Shown here: positions 5,156-60,621 of the stretch, piece after piece
Numbering within the stretch: the stretch's first letter is position 1
Layout: the number at the start of each line of letters is the position of its first letter
From: Emiliania huxleyi CCMP1516
Taxonomy: Eukaryota
DNA: 64,000 nt
Reading direction: 5' to 3'
Assembly (NCBI RefSeq): GCF_000372725.1
Contig: NW_005201412.1
Coordinates: forward strand, 263,643-327,642
Notes under the pieces: generated by a model
The model's input: the letters and a program-made list of their open reading frames with translations, nothing else
Databases searched by the model: none
What the model was told of the DNA's origin: nothing
Program-made: the position numbers and the translations under genes

Positions 5156-8100
5156 ATGTACATGTACATGTTGCACATCTCGTGTGCGCTGGCGCTGGCG
5201 CCATTTTACCCGCCATCGACTCTCAGCCCGTCGCCGCACCCGCTGCGCCACGCAGCTCCAGCGCTCGCTAATTGGTGGTCCAAGGATCCTGATCCAAATT
5301 GGACGCGACAGTGGGAACGGGCTAAGGAGGACGCTGCCCTGCGAACGCCAGAGGAGAAGGCTGCAGTCATGGAGAACGCACAGAAAGTGGAGGCGGCAGT
5401 GACATCCACCGTTGATACCCTCTTTGCGGTGGGCGCGTTGTTCAAGGAGGCGCAGGAGGAGAGGGCGATCGAGGAGAGGCGGCGTGCCGGGCAACGGGCA
5501 AAGGCGGCGGCGGCGTTGAAGGAGGAGAGGGCAAAGGCGGCGGCCGCGCGCGCAGCGGAGGCGGAGGCGGAGGCGGAGGCGGCCGAGCAGAAGCGGTTGG
5601 CGGAGGAGCGAGCCGCGGCCGCCGCCAAAGCGGCGCTGGCAGCGGCAGAGGCTGAGGAAGAGGCAGAGAGGGCGGCGGCAGCAGCGATGGCCGTCAAGGC
5701 TGATACCGAAGCAGCCGCGGCCGAAGCAGCGGCGGCAAAGGCGGAGCTGGAGGCAGCAGCACGGTGGGAGGCCGAGGCGGCCGCAGCGGTTGAGGCGGCA
5801 GCGACGGCAGCGGCCGAGGTGGCCGAGGCGGCCGAGGCGGCCGAGGCGGCCAAGGCGGCCGAGGCGGCCGAGGCAGCCAAGGCGGCCGAGGCGGCCGAGG
5901 CGGCCGAGGTAGGGGCGGAGAGGGCGGCAAAGGCGGAGGAGGCGCAGCTGGCAGCCAGGGCCAAGGTGGAGAAGGAGAGGGGCGTGGCCAAGGCACGGGC
6001 GGTCAAGCCGGAGAAGGCAGTCTCTCCGCCAGCCGCCCCTCCGCCGCCGGCAAGTGGCAAAGTGCCGGCGCCGCAGGCGGACGTGCGCGAGAATGCGCAG
6101 CAGATCGAGGCGGCGGTGACGGGGGCGGTGGACGTCATCTGGGCGGTTGGGGCGCTGTTCAAGGAGAAGCAGGAGGAGAGGGCGGCGGAGGAGAAGCGGC
6201 GTGCCGAGGAGCGGGCAGTAGCGAGGGCAAAGGCGGCGGAGGAGAGGGCAAAGGAGGCGGAGGAGGAGGCGGCGGCGGAGGCAGCGGCCGCAGCGGTACG
6301 CGAGGCGGAGGAGGCGGCTGCGAAGGCGGCGGCGGAGGCGGAGGCGGAGGAGAGGCAGATCAGAGTCCTGTACCGCGAGGTGCAGCTCACTAGCCAAGAG
6401 TAGCCCACTCCTGCACCTTCTCGCACCACGGCCCTTGCCGTGGCGACGCCGACGCCCCGCCTCTTCCCGCTGCAGGTGATCCGCCTCGACAGCGCGGCGC
6501 AGGCGGCCCGCATCCGAAAGGCGCAGCGCCCCGCCGACCCACCCACGACGCTTCGCCCTCCTCACCCCCTCCCGCGCCTCCGAGCCGTCAGGCCGTCGCC
6601 AACAGAGCGGCGCTCGCGACTCTGGCCAAGAAGGAGGCGGAGCGGGCGGTCGCCGCGGCTGAGGAGAAGAAGAAGGCGGCGGCGGCCGAGGCGGAGCGGA
6701 AGGAGGCGGAGGCGGCGCAGGCGGCGAGGCGGAAGGAAGCCGAGGCGGCGGAGGTGGCGAGGCGGAAGGAGGGGGAGGCGAAGGCGGCGGAGGCCCGCGA
6801 GCAGAAGCTCGCCCGCTTCACGACTCCGGCCGAGAAGGCGGCGACGGAGAAGGCGGCGAAGGGTGCCGAGGAGGCGCGGGAGGAGGCGCAGCTGGCAGCC
6901 AGGGCCAAGGTGGAGGAGGAGAGGGGCGTGGCCAAGGCACGGGCGGTCAAGCCGGAGAAGGCAGTCTCTCCGCCAGCCGCCCCTCCGCCGCCGGCAAGTG
7001 GCAAAGTGCCGGCGCCGCAGGCGGACGTGCGCGAGAATGCGCAGCAGATCGAGGCGGCGGTGACGGGGGCGGTGGACGTCATCTGGGCGGTTGGGGCGCT
7101 GTTCAAGGAGAAGCAGGAGGAGAGGGCGGCGGAGGAGAAGCGGCGTGCCGAGGAGCGGGCAGTAGCGAGGGCAAAGGCGGCGGAGGAGAGGGCAAAGGAG
7201 GCGGAGGAGGAGGCGGCGGCGGAGGCAGCGGCCGCAGCGGTACGCGAGGCGGAGGAGGCGGCTGCGAAGGCGGCGGCGGAGGCGGAGGCGGAGGAGAGGC
7301 AGATCAGAGTCCTGTACCGCGAGGTGCAGCTCACTAGCCAAGAGTAGCCCACTCCTGCACCTTCTCGCACCACGGCCCTTGCCGTGGCGACGCCGACGCC
7401 CCGCCTCTTCCCGCTGCAGGTGATCCGCCTCGACAGCGCGGCGCAGGCGGCCCGCATCCGAAAGGCGCAGCGCCTCGCCCGACCAGCCCGACCTCGCCAC
7501 ATCCAGCCCCTCACGCGGCCTCTCCTCAACCTCAGGCGGTGTCCAACCGGGCGGCGCTCGCGACTCTGGCGAAGGAGGCGGCGGCGCGGGCGGCGGCGGA
7601 GGCGGAGCAGAAGAAGGCGGCGGCCGCTGCGGAGGCGGAGAGAAAGGAGGCGGAGGCGAGGCGCAAGGAGGCGGAGGAGGCGGCGGAGGCGAAGCGCAAG
7701 GAGGCCGACGCCGAGGCGGAGATTAGGCGAGCTGCAGAGGAGACAGCGGCGAGGGTGGCAGCGGAGGCGGAGGCAAAGAGGGCGGCTGAGGCGGCGGCAG
7801 CAGAGGCGGCGGCGGAGGCGAGGGCGAAAGCGGCAGTCGCGGCCGCCGAGAAGGCGGTCGAGGAGGCCAGGGTGGCGGCGGAGGCAGAGGCGAAGGCAGC
7901 AGCCGAGGCGGCGGCGGTGGCGGCGGCGGAGCGGGTGGTCGAGGAGGAGAGGGCGGCTCGGGTCAAGCAGGAGGCCGGACTGCGGCGATGCGGGAGACGG
8001 CCCTCCCCAGCTCCCAACGCGTGCACTCTCGCTTCTAGGACGCCGATGCCCTCACGGCGGGCATCTCCGGTGTGCTTGATGCCTTCCTCGCCGTGGGAGC

Positions 8101-9384: not shown

Positions 9385-9669
9385 TGCACGGCGGCGCGAG
9401 GCGGAGCGGAGGAGTGCACCCAGAGAGGAGGCGCGACGGCGAGCGGAGCACGAGCGTTAGCGTGTGGCCGGGCCCGCATTGGTCAAGAGAGCGACCTCTC
9501 CGCTCTCGCGGCGACACGCGAGAAAACACAAAAAGGCGCGAAGCCAGATAGTGCAGAGAGCGCGCACTTACGGCTTTACATATGTGCATGTGGTTTCGCG
9601 AGAGTGTCGCACGTTTTTTTTCAACGACCATGCACATGTACATGTATCTCGTAACTAACACAGCACGCT

Positions 9670-11269
<1,600 letters not shown>

Positions 11270-11626
11270 GGTTGTTGGAGAGTGGTTGTCTGCGCGGGAG
11301 GGGGAGGGGGGGGTGAGGGGCTGGGGGCTGGGGGGCGGCCCGTGGAGCGTGCGAGAGAAGGCGAGCGCGAGAGTGTGGCGCGGCGCGGAGGTGCGGGGAG
11401 GTGTGGGCTGGGTGAGATGGCAGAGATCTCAGTCCTCCGCAACAGCGTGCGCGCGGTGCTTTGCGTGAGTCGCGCGGGTGTGTGCTGTGGGTACTCGACG
11501 TGGACCTGAGTTAGATTTTCGTGGAAGCTGAACGAGCTGTGCACGCATCTGGCGACCGAGAGGTCTCGAGGTGGATATCCTTTGGTCGCATTGGGTAGCG
11601 AGGATTGGTGTAACCCGAGGGAGGGT

Positions 11627-13250: not shown

Positions 13251-15403
13251 GTAGGGTGCCCACAGGACCCAAAAGAAAATAGCTTGACGACTCAAAAAGG
13301 GACGCACGAGGCAAATCTGATGTTGGCCAGTTCCAATAGGAGCGAGGCCTCTTCCGTTGGGGGACCGAGTTCATAGGAAACGAGGGTTTCCCATTGTGTC
13401 CCGCTCCAGCGCGAGCGTGACACTGCACTTGGCGCCGAGCGCCCGCGGCTCAGACCTTGTGCAGGCCACCCCTCGGTGAGTGCACCGGTCCGGACCGATG
13501 GCGCTCGGTGTGGAGCAAGCAAGACCCCCCCCCCCCCCTCGGGGCGCGCTCGCCATTCCAACGGCCGCCAGGAGCACCAAGAGGACTCCTCATGGCTGCA
13601 CTCAAGTGGGCTTCGACCGGCCTCGGCTGGGGGGGCGGGTTGTCCCGGCTGCGGACGCCTTCTGCAGCCCCCTGGGATGGGGACAGCACCCAAAAACTGC
13701 CCCCGGCGGCATACAGCACTGCCAGCCAGCCTCTTCCTCCTCCTCAAGGGCTGTACTATAGGCCATATTGCGCCGCCTCCTACTGGCAGCCGGGCGGGCG
13801 CGCGCCGCGGGCGCCTCGGCGCGCGCACGGCTCGCAAAGTTCGAACGAGTACTGCCGCCCGGCCGCCTCAAGGCTGCCGGGCGGCAGTACTCGCCTCGCA
13901 AGGCGCGCACCGGCTGATCTGGCTGCTGCGCCGGCGGCCGCTGCGTTGGCCGCTGCTGCGCCGGCTGGCGGGCGGTACGGCCGCCGGCGGCCGCTGCACC
14001 CGCGCCTTCCCTCGCGGGCGCCGTCGCGCCGCGCGCGCCCAACTCTGCTGGTACACGGCACGCGTCGTCACACAGCCGCGGAGAATAGGCGGTGCAGCGC
14101 GCGAAGCGCGCGCGATCTCGTACTTTTAAGGCTGGATCCGGCCATTCCAAGGGTATACCTTTGAGAATCCCCAGCGTCCCACCCTCCTAGTCACACTCTC
14201 AATTTCTCGACTGGCCAACACGAAGTGCTGCGCGTCGAGGTTGGCCCATTTCTTTTTTCCTTTCAGAATCAAGTCAGCACATCCTTGTAGTACAGCGGAC
14301 CGCCAATCTCGCCAGTAGCATCCGCAGGGAGGCAGCATATGAGGCACCAGTCTTCTGCGAAGAGCTCAACAGCTGCGGCCGCGATGGCAGAGTCGGCCGC
14401 GGTTCGAGCGAGCAGCTTTTGGCTGCAGGATCGAATCGCGGAAGGCTCATGGTCATGCCCTCGCGGAGCGCGCGGGTGTGCGAAATGCGACAAAAGACGA
14501 AAGACGACAGGCGCCTGAGCGCTGTACGCCTGAACTTTTGTCGCCGCAATCGCCACCGCCGCCATCTTGACGAGCAGCGCGAGCGCGCTCGTCGGCGGCC
14601 AGCCGTCGCGGGCCGGGCCGAGCCCGGCCTCAACCGGCCGCGCCGCCGCAGCAGGCCCGGAGGCCCACATGGCGGCCGACCAGCTGATAAGGAGGCGCTC
14701 TCTCTCACTTCCTTGTGTAGACTTGCGAGTGGCCCCATGCATCCACGAGATTGGAGAGAGCGAGAACCGAGATGAAAAATGTCCCGGGTTGTGTTCCTGT
14801 GGACGCATTTGTTGTTGCGTGTGCTGAGGGTCATGGCGATGCGGGCTAGGAAAAGGTTTCTTTTTTCTTAGCTTCGGCTTTACCTCGGCGAGGCGCGGCG
14901 GAGCAATGACGGATGAGCTGAAGCGGTGAAGGGGAAGGATAGAGGAGCGGGAAACCGCCCCTAATTGGAACGAATGAGCGAAAAACGCGCATCCCCGGCC
15001 GGGGGGCGGGGGGCCGATGGAGCCGGAGAGTCCCGCGAGCGCACACGCGCAGGAGAAAACCAAAATCAAAAGATGACATTTCGGCGCATCCGGGCAGATA
15101 TTCGCCACGAAGTTCTTCGAACGCCACGCTCCACAGGTGCTCGTACCGCTCTCGCAAAGCCGACGCGAGCTGTGGCTCCCTTGCGCGCCCGCCCGCCGCC
15201 CGCCCAACCACGCAACACGCACTCGTGCAGCCTCCCGTGACGGCCGACTCGACTTGCAACTCCAGCCCACACCTCCCCGCACCTCCGCGCCGCGCCACAC
15301 TCTCGCGCTCGCCTTCTCTCGCACGCTCCACGGGCCGCCCCCCAGCCCCCAGCCCCTCACCCCCCCCTCCCCCTCCCGCGCAGACAACCACTCTCCAACA
15401 ACC

Positions 15404-17003
<1,600 letters not shown>

Positions 17004-17321
17004 AGCGCGCGGCGGCACGCGCGGAGAGGAGAGAGGGAGGAGAGAGGGAGGAGGCGGGGGGCGCACCGGGGCGCACCCGCCACGCGGCCGGAGGGCGCGC
17101 GGTATCGAGCTACGAGGACGTTGGAGAGGACACTTGTCTGTGGAGAGGACCAGTGGGAGGGGATGCGGAGCACGGATGGATTACACACTTCTACTACTGT
17201 CAATGTGATGAATGATGCGATACACCGACTGCAACAAACACCGTTTCACCTCTGGGGGGAGGCGGGGGCCCCCGGAGGCACCGTGCGCCGGCCGCCGCCG
17301 CGCAGCAGAGAGCAGTGACCA

Positions 17322-28991: not shown

Positions 28992-29739
28992 CCTCGAGGT
29001 CCCACGCCGACACGAGCTCGGTGCTCCACCAAGTCTTGTAGTCGTGCAGCGTCGCGTACCTGCAGCAGCGGTGTGGGAGTGAGACGGTCCAGTGTGAACA
29101 CGGCCGAGGCAGCGGCGCACATCAGCTTGTTGCGCAGCGCGAGCTCCATGATCCAGTCGCCGCGCCTGTGGGAGGGGCTCCGAGCAGCTCCTGGGAGGGG
29201 CTCCAGGCGAGGACCAGGCAGAGCCCCTCGATGAGGCTCCGCCCGCCGCGCCGCGGAGTGAAAGGCAGCGGCTGCATCTCGGATGCATCTCGGCTGCATC
29301 TCGGCTGCATCTCGGCTGCATCTCGGCTGCATCTCGGCTGCATCTCGGCTGCATCTCGGCTGCATCTCGGCTGCATCTCGGCTGCATCTCCCACCGCGTC
29401 GTGCAGGGCAGCGGCTGGTTCGCAGTCACCATCATCACGCGCGCGCCTACGGCCGTCACGGGCGGGTCGGGCGCACCCCCCTCTGCTGCCTCGCGGCGGC
29501 TCTCTCCCTAGCACGCCGCTCGGCCCGCGAGGCGCCGGCATCGCACCCCCGGCCGGCAGGCCTCCGAGGGCCGCCGGGAGGGAGTAGTGACCGTGCAGGG
29601 TGGTGGAGTAGGTGGTGGAGCGGGTCATGCGGTGGTTGGTCGAGCGGACGTGGTAGATCATCGCGGGCAGGTAGAAGGAGAGGATCGTCAGCGTCACGAT
29701 GAGGACCGTCGTCGAGTAGACGATCAGGCCGCACCGCAT
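25723..29739 (-). CDS. Type II membrane GT34-family glycosyltransferase fused to a PAPS-dependent carbohydrate sulfotransferase; many introns
   Basis: N-terminal TM (LIVYSTTVLIVTLTILSFYL). GT34 motifs: VMMVTANQPLPC, LRNKLMYA.LH, WNKIPLL, EWLLWMDDDAIFTDM, LNTGVFLLRKCEWS, EQGAL, PFVVQYAGCQMC, AYTFGDDQVL. Sulfotransferase motifs: LPSFLVIGTQKGGTSS (5'-PSB), KEIHYF, GEVSATYL, VLLREPVARLVS (3'-PB), SMYSEHLAKWLKVYP.EQLLV. Inferred last exon VGDMPWLATALKRDIC*. Confidence 0.88.
26194..26296. repeat. (GT)n plus (GAGT)n microsatellite, intronic
   Basis: Direct reading. Confidence 0.97.
29270..29390. repeat. 11-bp tandem repeat (GGCTGCATCTC) x11, intronic
   Basis: Direct reading. Related intronic repeats lie at ~27633-27665 (gccgagatga), ~27822-27858 (ccaggaggtgt) and ~28940-28988 (ggccaga). 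Confidence 0.97.
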
Positions 29740-36066: not shown

Positions 36067-36273
36067 CAGCGGAGCTGGGAATAGGACCGCCGCGAGCGGC
36101 GCGGCGTGGAGCGGTTGAGCATCCCTCCGGGGGCCCCTCTGCGCCGGGGAGGCGTTGTTGGAGGCTAGGACGCAAGCGTCCGTCGCCCTTTTTCAAACTC
36201 GGGGCCCACTCCGCTACGCTCCGACCCGAATTTGGAGGGCCTAAAAGTTTAAGGTGTTGCTGCGCAAAAGGGG
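36067..36273. repeat. ~205-bp dispersed element upstream of the glyoxalase gene (second copy 59960-60173)
   Basis: cagcggagctgggaataggaccgccgc...gctgcgcaaaagggg is highly similar at both loci and in the same orientation. Confidence 0.92.
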
Positions 36274-57060: not shown

Positions 57061-57541
57061 CGACTGAACCAGCCAGGACTGAACGCGGAGAGTCGAGCGA
57101 GAGAGTGCCGGTCAGTGTCGCTTCTGTGCATAAGGCCTTCTTGCCTGTCGCACTCTTGCCTGTCGCACACATGCACATGTGCAATCGTTTCGCAGTTGGG
57201 GCCTGTGTCAGACCTGGGCTTGAGATTGAGGAGATATCGCGTCGGTTCCGGTAATCGGATATCGGATATCGGTCTGCGTGGAACATTATGTAAGTTCCAA
57301 ACAAATAAATTCCCGAAAGACCGCACAGACAGGTGACAAACACAACGCTCAGCCTGTCCTCAGGCTCAGCGGCCAAAAGGGCGAATAATTTAACAAACAT
57401 GACTCTCTCTCACAGCAGACAGATTCGCCGGAACTAACACACACAGGCGGAGTGAAGTGTGAAGAAGTCGCGCAGCTGCACCCCAGGCATGAAGCAACCG
57501 TTACGAGGCTAGCCTCGTACCTCGAGAAGATATGTGTACAT

Positions 57542-58720
57542 ATGGCTCCTGTCGTCGCGAAGAAGGGCAGTAGCACCAGTAAGATTGCTCCCGAACCGAG
57601 CGCACCAACCGGCAGAATCGGCAGCTCTAAAGAGGTATCATGCAAATCCGAGCCGTCTGGCATGGCATCCAAATCCGAGCCGACTGGCACGGCACTGCCA
57701 GCGCCGCGACCATTTCTTTCGATCTCCAACGACCTCTGTGGCCTTGTGATTTCGTCTTGGCTCGTGCCGACGGTGAGGCGTCCTCGCAAAGGTGTCCTGA
57801 CCTTTGTGGGTGCCTTGTTGGCTCAGCTTGGCTTCCTCTTGTACATGGTTGAGATCATCATCCACGGAGGCAAGAGCACCTGCGAAACGCCCGCTCTGCT
57901 TCAGTTGGTCGCCCTCTACACCTTTGGCTCCGCATGCGCCGCCGGATCGCACAGCGACAACCTGCTGCAAGTTGCCCTTGTGTGCCAGCGGCTGCGGCTT
58001 CCCGCCGCTCCTGTGGCCGACAGCCACGGGCGGCTGACACAAGGCAGCGAGGCAAAAGCCGCTCAGGGGCAGAGGGAGTGGCCATGCCGCGACATTTGCA
58101 CCGTTGACGTTGCCACGCGTCAACAGGTGATCATCCCAGTCCGGCCGACGTCACGGCGCGCGCGGATGCTGCTCGCGTGCGCACCTCTCGCTTCGATGCT
58201 CATCGAGCTCCTCACGCTCTGCGTCGGCCCGATCTCCTCAGCTCTCTTTCACCAAAGCATGCCACTGCTCTCATCATCAATCCACGGTAGGCGCTGTCTA
58301 CCTGCTCTTGTCTGCGACCACCGAGGAGCTGATTCTAAACGCGGTGAGATCCGGCAGAGACGCGTGGGTTTAGTTGTGGGTGAGTGTCGAGCGCTCCCGG
58401 CGCGGCGTCAGGTGGCGACGAACTTCGTGACGCAGATCGACGAGGTGATGCTCACCGCGTTTGTGCACCGCGCGTCGCGCGATCGGCTGAGCAAGTACCA
58501 GTACGAGCATCTGTGGGGCGTCGAAGAGGGCGACACCCGGCTGAAGAATGTGAGCGATCGGTCGAGGTGGCTCGCGCGCAGACAGGAGCTGCTGCCACTC
58601 GTCTTGCTGCTGCTCGCCACCGTCACGGTCGGTGCCGGGCAAGCGTACGGCAGCCCTCAGGACGGCGAGTCGTGCAGCTTCGTCTACCCTCCCGAGAGAG
58701 AGGCTCCAGAGGCTGTCTGA
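57542..58720 (+). CDS. Uncharacterised membrane protein; probable intron ~58227-58410
   Basis: Long ORF with several hydrophobic segments (VLTFVGALLAQLGFLLYMV; LLQLVALYTFG; LLPLVLLLLATVTVG) and VATNFVTQIDEVM. Start uncertain. Confidence 0.55.
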   Translation: MAPVVAKKGSSTSKIAPEPSAPTGRIGSSKEVSCKSEPSGMASKSEPTGTALPAPRPFLSISNDLCGLVISSWLVPTVRRPRKGVLTFVGALLAQLGFLLYMVEIIIHGGKSTCETPALLQLVALYTFGSACAAGSHSDNLLQVALVCQRLRLPAAPVADSHGRLTQGSEAKAAQGQREWPCRDICTVDVATRQQVIIPVRPTSRRARMLLACAPLASMLIELLTLCVGPISSALFHQSMPLLSSSIHGRRCLPALVCDHRGADSKRGEIRQRRVGLVVGECRALPARRQVATNFVTQIDEVMLTAFVHRASRDRLSKYQYEHLWGVEEGDTRLKNVSDRSRWLARRQELLPLVLLLLATVTVGAGQAYGSPQDGESCSFVYPPEREAPEAV

Positions 58721-58948
58721 CGTCAGGGCGTGCGTGCCGCTGCCGGAGAATGCACTTGTCTTTCACAAACGACAAACTTCGCGCCAGTTGGGGATGTGCG
58801 CGGGCGTCGCTCTTATCAGTCAGTGCGCGCAAGTTCGTTGCCGGCATCGCGCATGCTCATTTTAGATTTTTTATAAGCGCATCAATAACAATATGTGTGT
58901 TCTCTCTTGTGACTCGCCCAGGACTCGCCCTGCCGATTCTTGGGGCTT

Positions 58949-59027
58949 GGCGCCGCGTCACGGGGCTCGAGCAGGGAGGACGGGCGCGGTGCCTTTCCCC
59001 TCCCCGCCGTCATGCCGACGCGACACC
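58949..59027 (-). promoter_or_regulatory. SECIS element (type II) in the glutaredoxin 3'UTR
   Basis: Minus strand: GGUGUCGCGUC-ggc-AUGAC-GGCGGGGAGGGG-AAA-GGC accgc GCC-cg-UCCUCCCUGCU-CGAG-ccccgu-GACGCGGCGCC. It shows helix I (11 bp), the UGA/GA quartet, helix II (11 bp), an AAA bulge and an apical mini-stem. Confidence 0.9.
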
Positions 59028-59109
59028 ACAGGGAAAGCTGGCCTCTCGGCGACTCGGCCCGTGCCTCCCCAACTCCCTTTGCACATCGCGAGTCCCGCCG
59101 CGCCGGCGC

Positions 59110-59844
59110 CTAATTTTGCAGCATCGGCTGCAGCTTGCCCGCTTTATCAAGCGTCATCACGCCGCCCAGACCGCCGTCGTTGCAGCCGCCGACAAACTCG
59201 CCGCCGATGAAGACGGCAGGGACGGAGGTGCGTCCCGTGAGGTCTGCGAGCTCTGCGCGGAGGGCGTAGCCGTCCTGCACCTCGTTCAGCTCGACGACGC
59301 GGTACTCGGCGCCGTAGCCGTCGAGCACCTGGCGGGCGAGCGGCGAGGAGAGCACTCTCGGGGTTGTGTGCGTGCTGTTCGAATGTCTGTCGAGGTGGCG
59401 TTGGCAAGGCAGCGACGCCAGCACTCGCCTGCTTCGCCTTGACGCAGAAGGGTCAGGTCGTAAACGAGAACATTACCACGCGGTCGCCTAGGGAAGGTGC
59501 CGCGAGCGGGTCTGCGATCGGCCAGCCCACTGAGGGCATGCACAGGAGGTGTTGCCGGCAATGATTCCATCGAGCTGCGCACGCATCGCGATCTCGTCGT
59601 AGTCGCCGGCCTGCAACTTGGCGAGCCCCTTCTTGAACTTTGCCGCCGGGCTGTTTTGGATGGCCTCTTGCAGACCGTTGATGGCTTGGATGAATGGGTT
59701 GCCGGTCGGGTCCTCAGCGCAGGTGAGCACAGAGGCGCGTGCCACGGAGGGCAGACGCGCTGAGCGCGTCGACGAGGGGAGAGAGAGCGCGTGGCCATCT
59801 GGGGCCAGGCAGAGGAAGAGCGCGATCGCTGCTCGATACAGCAT
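59110..59844 (-). CDS. Selenocysteine-containing glutaredoxin (UPFC active site) with N-terminal signal/transit peptide; exons 59844-59556, 59487-59429, 59328-59110
   Basis: Spliced: MLYRAAIALFLCLAPDGHAL...DGIIAG|DRVVMFSFTT-TGA-PFCVKAKQ|VLDGYGAEYRVVELNEVQDGYALRAELADLTGRTSVPAVFIGGEFVGGCND...; TGA at 59453-59455. Confidence 0.92.
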
Positions 59845-59959
59845 CTCTCTCTCTGTTGTCGTGTCAGGCTCTTGTGTCAACAGTGGCGAGCCGTTTAGGC
59901 AGCAGCGAGCCACAGCAGCGAGCCAGCGGAAGCTTCTCTCTCAAAGAAAACAACCTGCG

Positions 59960-60173
59960 CAGCGGAGCTGGGAATAGGACCGCCGCAAGCGGCGTGGCGT
60001 GGAGCGGTTGAGCATCCCTCCGGGGGCCCCTCTGCGCCGGGGAGGCGATGTTGGAGCTAGGACGCAAGCGTCCGTCGCCCTTTTCAAACTCGGGGCCCCA
60101 CTCCGCTACGCTCCGAGGCCTCCGACCCGAATTTGGAGGCCTGAAAGTTTAAGGTATTGCTGCGCAAAAGGGG
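59960..60173. repeat. Second copy of the ~205-bp element, upstream of the glutaredoxin gene
   Basis: Matches 36067-36273 with small indels. Confidence 0.92.
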
Positions 60174-60285
60174 TCGGACACAGGGCGCAGCTCATGCTAA
60201 GAGCTAGAAGGGGAGCTAGAGAGAACGACTACCCTGTCCCGTTATTGCGTACACCAACACCACAAAAGCTCTCTCTCTCCTGTCC

Positions 60286-60621
60286 TCACTCAGAGCACAG
60301 AGGGGGGTCACAACTACCGAGTCCCTCGACTAGCTGCCACGTTGCCGACCGAGAGCGGATCTCCTCCTGCTCCACAAGGAGGGTGGCCAAGGCTAAAGTC
60401 TTGCCGGAGCCGCCGGGCGCGTTGACGACTTGGAGAAGGTCGCCCTTGTACTTGTGCTTGTAGAGATGCTCGAGGGGGTGCTTTGTGGGGCGGTGCGCAG
60501 CCAGGCCAGCAGTGAGGGGAGGCGCACCCTCACTCTCCTCGGTTGCAGAGCTCGTCGGAGGCTGCGTCACGACGGGAGGGTCGCGACAGCAGTCCTCGGG
60601 CGAGCCGACGCGCATGTCCAA
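60286..60621 (-). pseudogene. Possible P-loop NTPase/helicase fragment
   Basis: LQVVNAPGGSGKTLAL is a Walker A resembling the PIF1/Helitron 'APGGTGKT'. No further motifs; neighbouring frames are interrupted. Confidence 0.3.

Follow-up and report, generated by a model that had tools for sequence, protein, structure and literature searches.

On the minus strand of a 64-kb stretch of Emiliania huxleyi DNA (64,000 nucleotides, referred to below as the window) lies a transcribed nuclear gene whose spliced frame carries TGA at the position of the first cysteine of a CPFC glutaredoxin (Grx) active site. With a probability of approx. 0.65, we read its product as a plastid-imported selenocysteine (Sec) glutaredoxin acting as a glutathione-linked disulfide reductase, the import being predicted from its leader and the catalysis from its fold and motifs. 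That the gene encodes a Sec-glutaredoxin, putative at the protein level, is close to certain, and the first-pass annotation, which had proposed this from the DNA, very likely described a real selenoprotein gene of a known class; its observation is confirmed. The features of the gene are as follows.

59845..59950, minus: 5' UTR, from RNA contigs with 5' ends at 59938-59950
59844, minus: ATG start codon, opening the first of three coding blocks
59556..59844, minus: exon 1, with start codon, predicted leader, N-terminal helical extension and first Grx-domain helix, from RNA contigs
59788..59844, minus: predicted signal peptide, residues 1-19, cleavage G-H-A / L (own rule)
59716..59787, minus: predicted transit peptide, residues 20-43, Leu first, Ser/Thr/Arg-rich, no acidic residue (own rule)
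59605..59715, minus: N-terminal extension, residues ~44-80, two predicted helices, the first amphipathic; conserved, and seen in an orthologue model
59488..59555, minus: intron 1, GC-AG, 68 nt, RNA joint in 8/8 runs
59429..59487, minus: exon 2, 59 nt, active site FSFTT-U-PFC, from RNA contigs
59453..59455, minus: in-frame TGA, codon 108 of 188, at the first Cys position of CPFC
59329..59428, minus: intron 2, GC-AG, 100 nt, RNA joint in 8/8 runs
59110..59328, minus: coding part of exon 3, with the RTSVP loop, the GGCND motif and TAG at 59112-59110, from the PF00462 match
58867..59109, minus: 3' UTR including the SECIS, from RNA contigs
58949..59027, minus: type II SECIS hairpin, from our own scan, the fold and RNA contig cover

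Gene structure and transcript evidence

The transcript evidence comes from eight runs of five studies (13 runs are listed and 10 contain this stretch), four of which are recorded as RNA and four of which were taken as RNA by guess. Each of the eight runs gave one contig of approx. 900 nt that skips exactly 68 and 100 nt and spans from approx. 59940 to 58867-58898, i.e. past the SECIS hairpin. These joints bear out the two GC-AG introns that had been proposed and give a spliced frame of 188 residues with UPFC at 108-111. For intron 1 the DNA alone allowed 31 frame-keeping donor/acceptor pairs, including a 56-nt GT-AG intron; this and the other candidate joins were excluded by the RNA joints. 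The window has a GC content near 65%, and GC donors are the majority among E. huxleyi junctions, at 56-65%, in PMC4028052.

Exon 2 showed no other letter in any of the eight contigs, so that the TGA at 59455-59453 is present in spliced RNA. The first-pass annotation had asked that exon 59487-59429 be sought in RNA, where it was found with its TGA in 8/8 runs, and had named three observations that would tell against it. None was made: TGC or TGT at 59453-59455 occurs in no contig; exon 2 is skipped in none of the eight, rare skipped forms being beyond the reach of such contigs; and a poly(A) site upstream of the SECIS finds no support in contigs that run past the hairpin, the poly(A) site itself not being visible in them. 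No upstream ATG occurs within the RNA-covered 5' UTR.

At position 59761 all eight contigs differ synonymously from the window, and their source may therefore be another allele or strain. The protein record P0093 is identical with the window protein over residues 1-107, and the genomic records P0002-P0008 indicate, at the level of protein records, a second allele in which intron 1 starts differently. The intron 1 donor (window 59555-59540) is apparently allele-dependent, as genomic read-through records give two different peptides after an identical exon 1.

Several other features of the surrounding DNA were observed. A dispersed repeat (59960-60056 and 36067-36163, 97% over 97 nt) lies just upstream of the 5' end of the gene, and numerous RNA contigs align to stretches of 59960-60300 before continuing into other sequence. 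On the plus strand a 443-residue stop-to-stop frame (57389-58720) converges on the Grx 3' end; it has no Pfam match, and no RNA cover was found at 58600-58827 in four runs. A perfect 1749-nt inverted repeat (9663-11411 and 15262-17010, 3850 nt apart) could be a recent inverted duplication, the ends of a mobile element or an assembly artefact. Positions 29247-29423 hold a tandem array of approx. 12 copies of an 11-nt unit, and a direct repeat with identical copies no shorter than 300 nt (5935-6234 and 6879-7178, 944 nt apart) falls within an Ala/Glu-rich low-complexity region. No tRNA was found in the window.

SECIS element and probable recoding of UGA

A SECIS directs eukaryotic Sec insertion via the standard SBP2/eEFSec route. 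The type II element that had been placed approx. 80 nt after the stop is present, its helix I starting at 59027, 82 nt past the stop, followed by an AUGA core at 59013, a helix II with 11/11 pairs, AAA at 58996, an apical stem of 3 bp and, at 58968, the 3' GA. A rule-based scan of both strands of the 64 kb returned this element as its sole match, and shuffled UTRs matched the rule in only 2/2000 cases. Its fold gave a z score of -3.2 over 86 nt and of -1.3 for the 59-nt core alone. Rfam models detected no SECIS in the window; as they also gave 0 matches in 17 related loci, they look insensitive to such algal elements.

The same strict rule matched 0/12 TGA loci among the relatives and 2/21 Cys loci (one gene). 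With looser rules, which were chosen after viewing the sequences, dropping the helix I test gave matches in 3/7 long-flank TGA loci (two of them near copies) compared with 1/12 Cys loci, and the loosest rule in 5/7 TGA and 2/12 Cys loci, where shuffling leads one to expect 1.4 and 3.0 respectively. Two loci, L042 and L055, had no match under the strict or the looser rule. The candidates in L029, L051 and L079 (z scores of -2.0 to -3.5) have the same anatomy and differing sequence; alignment with MAFFT failed to bring the four SECIS candidates into register, and for this reason we made no covariance model and do not argue for covariation. In a Cys-coding diatom-like gene (L054, also L110) a SECIS-like hairpin lies over the stop codon, approx. 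270 nt after the motif, and is possibly a remnant of a Sec-to-Cys change, or due to chance.

The codon used at the site by relatives was read with a DNA pattern that allowed any TGN, in a scan covering 29 of 64 metagenome parts and returning at least 119 metagenome loci and nine viral loci. A fixed family rule retained 33 of the 128 loci, with 12 TGA (about eight distinct sequences), 16 TGT, five TGC and no TGG codons at the site; the 95 non-family matches had 21 TGA, 49 TGY and 25 TGG. The nine matches on viral contigs were rejected as relatives, all being off-frame chance matches. These family counts (12 TGA/21 TGY/0 TGG) agree with the proposal that TGA replaces the first Cys of CPFC, and in the TGA loci the frame goes on past the TGA into a full Grx domain.

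Spliced RNA, the exchange of TGA and Cys among relatives and the SECIS thus all uphold the reading as a Sec-glutaredoxin. It is very improbable that the UGA is instead a true stop, in a truncated protein or a decaying gene, or that it is read as Cys or Trp. Database records do terminate at FSFTT, and a pattern restricted to TGN leaves TAA and TAG at the site outside its view, but the domain downstream of the TGA is conserved among relatives at 45-74% identity and the same mRNA carries a SECIS. The site is recorded as Trp in 2/53 relatives, which may reflect the caller's choice of code, whereas TGG was found at 0/33 family loci; as to a changed code, the gene terminates in TAG and no sign of an altered code was seen.

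Glutaredoxin domain and active site

The spliced protein matches Pfam PF00462, exon 2 covering profile positions 1-17 and exon 3 positions 19-60, and exon 3 alone scores 35.2 bits (E = 1.4e-8) against a cut-off of 22.9. An AlphaFold model made for the mature orthologue from L042 rather than for the window protein (41 sequences) shows a Grx fold with pLDDT 88 and pTM 0.78, preceded by two extra N-terminal helices of lower confidence. With this model the best Foldseek matches were class I glutaredoxins of buckwheat, poplar, zebrafish and wheat, over approx. 110 of 153 positions, and the top ten had TM scores of 0.79-0.94 by target length. The class I features present are the Grx fold (in the orthologue model), the C/UxxC site, the cis-Pro loop and the GG motif. 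Three full-length relatives reached 61-66 bits with the NCBIfam GRX_euk equivalog, below its cut-off of 87.25; the score of an orthologue was 65.

A full site is present in 53 of 63 homologues, and in these the activator position, three residues ahead of the catalytic residue, holds Phe in 42, Thr in six, Trp in two, Gln in two and Leu in one; 0/53 have Lys or Arg there, and the window protein has Phe105. In the same set the cis-Pro loop RTSVP is kept in 40/53 and GGCND in 51/53. A nearly invariant Arg aligns with the Gln of class I enzymes, and we take this position to have a glutathione-binding role. The predicted fold is that of a class I glutaredoxin, with one feature of the active type failing. 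According to PMC5382279, the activator Lys acts on the enzyme thiolate and on GSH, and an uncharged residue there is typical of inactive isoforms. The Lys is missing from the Cys forms too, and selenium is therefore not the whole explanation for its loss.

In the mechanism that we propose, Sec would be inserted at codon 108 under the direction of the SECIS, and the selenolate of Sec108 would attack protein disulfides or the mixed disulfides of proteins with glutathione; Cys111 would be the resolving residue and GSH the reductant. With Phe105 in place of the activator Lys the GSH step may be slower, and the selenolate would stay ionized without the Lys. Docking, be it on a membrane or on a client protein, may be the role of the N-terminal helices.

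Leader and predicted plastid import

The leader was assessed with a fixed rule of our own, modelled on criteria given in PMC4329603 and distinct from SignalP, ASAFind and HECTAR. The window protein satisfies the full pattern of signal peptide, F/W/Y/L at +1 and transit peptide, as do 100/2000 shuffles of its N-terminus; the first 20 residues of the transit peptide contain seven Ser/Thr, three Arg and no acidic residue, with Leu at +1. Residues 1-19 would direct the protein to the chloroplast ER, from where residues 20-43 would take it into the stroma.

Of 70 relatives examined, 46 had N-termini long enough to be judged, and the rule accepted 33/46 compared with 4.1 in shuffles, 29 of them with Phe at +1. 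Under a slightly wider rule, records truncated at the site gave 23/44 against 2.4 in shuffles. The close TGA orthologues L021, L042, L029 and L055 have Phe at +1 and classic A-F cleavage sites, and several of the relatives that fail the rule have, by eye, a green-alga-type transit peptide without a signal peptide. The leader thus tracks the plastid type of the host, and it is this that argues most strongly for a location in the plastid. Plastid import, suggested at the outset from the signal peptide and the Ser/Arg-rich stretch, has in this way gained comparative support and stays a prediction; on the evidence of the leader we consider it probable.

Alternative locations and reaction partners

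Two further readings accept the Sec-glutaredoxin and differ on where it resides or on what it reacts with. The protein might stay behind in the ER or the periplastid space, or follow the secretory route, rather than reaching the stroma, which we regard as unlikely. The window protein has Leu at +1, and predictors of this type can also select periplastid proteins (PMC5462543), but Leu is one of the four +1 residues accepted by ASAFind (PMC4329603), the four TGA orthologues just named have Phe, and the C-terminus has no ER retention motif. In PMC8834552, on the single alga for which we found such a test, 0/24 Ostreococcus tauri selenoproteins have a chloroplast transit peptide, whereas green-type relatives in the present family have a transit peptide without a signal peptide, which speaks against the secretory alternatives.

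Somewhat less improbable, yet still unlikely, is a plastid selenoenzyme with a Grx fold that does not cycle with glutathione and draws its electrons from a thioredoxin-type reductase, or acts on one client recognized via its N-terminal helices. The loss of the activator Lys in all 53 relatives fits such an enzyme, since an uncharged residue there marks inactive isoforms and other thioredoxin-fold proteins (PMC5382279), and so do the conserved extension and a five-residue insert after GGCND, both absent from the closest solved glutaredoxins. Against it stand the motifs of the glutathione groove, retained at the frequencies given above, and the nearly invariant Arg at the class I Gln position, presumably a glutathione-binding one. 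We retain the glutathione-linked plastid enzyme as the preferred reading.

Relatives and evolution

Diacronema lutheri and Prymnesium polylepis, both haptophytes, supply the nearest named relatives; together with the GC content and the two GC donors they point to a haptophyte gene, likely one of E. huxleyi or a close relative. A quick tree was made from 79 rows, ten database matches without a full site having been excluded, and in it the window protein falls in a group of 11 with a support of 95, comprising six Sec, four Cys (including Diacronema) and one Trp form. Sec also occurs in a diatom-like clade and in L058 and L079 among green-alga-like rows; the Sec/Cys label changes four times on this tree, at least three of them forced, with no direction assigned. 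In the atlas a Cys homologue is found among all-eukaryote clusters, chiefly of diatoms and chlorophytes, and a narrow family-motif pattern had 0 matches in the prokaryote genome collection.

The family members with TGA that group with green-alga-like rows lie at L058:1260-1880 and L079:495-1077, both on the minus strand. L058 has a transit-type leader that lacks a signal peptide. In L079 the SECIS is canonical, and P0194, which matches the available stretch of L079, likewise has a transit-type leader without a signal peptide. Genes neighbouring L058 and L079 encode an MA3-domain protein and a helicase OB fold. We tentatively suggest, as a possibility somewhat short of even odds, a family of selenoenzymes of the plastid stroma that extends across the algae, from haptophytes and diatoms to, probably, green algae, missed because its members are cut at the UGA, lacking the Lys, bearing a helical docking extension and switching repeatedly between Sec and Cys.

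Truncation in databases

The first-pass annotation had expected gene finders to mis-model the gene, and this is what the records show: four transcriptome records of the window gene end at FSFTT after 106-107 residues, and genomic gene calls read into intron 1. P0002 is such a read-through, and a search with it accordingly gave just four proteins. With a profile made from the N-terminal half, 183 clusters (50% identity) were retrieved; among the best 150 of the 183, 65 end right before the site, 19 have CPxC and 66 are other fragments, a ratio that is biased because the profile itself stops there and was derived from sequences that are probably Sec forms, and site-truncated protein records do not reveal which stop codon is present. 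Many database records of this glutaredoxin subfamily are thus shortened at the UGA and carry no domain label. In P0060, a haptophyte-like genomic read-through record, FSFTT is followed by Cys-Thr-Cys and then by unrelated sequence; an intron may split its active-site codon.

Selenoproteins are usually regarded as cytosolic, ER or mitochondrial. A stromal location of the enzyme would bring the selenium needs of bloom-forming algae into contact with the redox control of photosynthesis, and would require UGA recoding to operate together with ER-coupled plastid import. Should the algae-wide plastid family hold, selenium would enter chloroplast redox control directly and natural Sec/Cys enzyme pairs would be at hand. 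The close diatom relatives with Sec (L055 and L087) and with Cys (L054 and L095) offer a clean test of what selenium adds and of whether it compensates for the missing activator Lys.

Comparison with known systems

An apicoplast location has reportedly been described for a Plasmodium selenoprotein. In the literature searched, which omitted most subscription papers, we found no description of a plastid-targeted Sec-glutaredoxin, nor of any plastid or apicoplast selenoprotein.

Clostridial Grx1 is a bacterial Sec-glutaredoxin. Bacterial forms (NCBIfam Uxx_star) share with the present family a Sec placed first in a UxxC-type site and the Grx fold, but an orthologue scores 19.6 bits against their cut-off of 66, and the algal gene has a eukaryotic SECIS in its 3' UTR. 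The class I dithiol glutaredoxins used as a reference set (wheat 5zvl, buckwheat 5kqa, poplar GrxC1 and GrxS12, and Chlamydomonas GRX2) have the same fold, CxxC-type site, cis-Pro loop and GG motif; the family differs from them in its Sec at the first Cys position, its Phe at that of the activator Lys, the five-residue insert after GGCND and approx. 40 extra N-terminal residues. The leader resembles the bipartite leaders of proteins bound for red-lineage secondary plastids, with their ASAFAP motif, as described in PMC4329603, in its hydrophobic signal, small -3/-1 residues, F/W/Y/L at +1 and hydroxylated and basic transit peptide, and departs from them in having Leu rather than the commoner Phe at +1. 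That type of rule was trained on diatoms (PMC4329603) and has been used for haptophytes (PMC5462543).

The closest precedent is the work of Jiang et al. (2020, PMC7539508), which reports Sec-GRX in SAR algae and haptophytes and none in Plantae, as well as a Sec/Cys GRX pair in Fragilariopsis cylindrus; glutaredoxin is also listed among Aureococcus selenoproteins in PMC5917014. The gene first called 'hidden' is thus hidden from standard annotation but not from the selenoprotein literature, and it may well be among the 96 E. huxleyi genes of PMC7539508. Our family agrees with that account in the replacement of Cys by Sec in the Grx of selenoprotein-rich algae and in the mixture of Sec and Cys forms within one subtree. 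It differs in that L058 and L079 combine TGA with leaders of the green type, and in the matter of location, the words chloroplast, plastid and signal peptide occurring 0 times in the main text of Jiang et al. Sec-glutaredoxins of haptophytes are therefore already known, and the new part is the plastid-directed subfamily that lacks the activator Lys.
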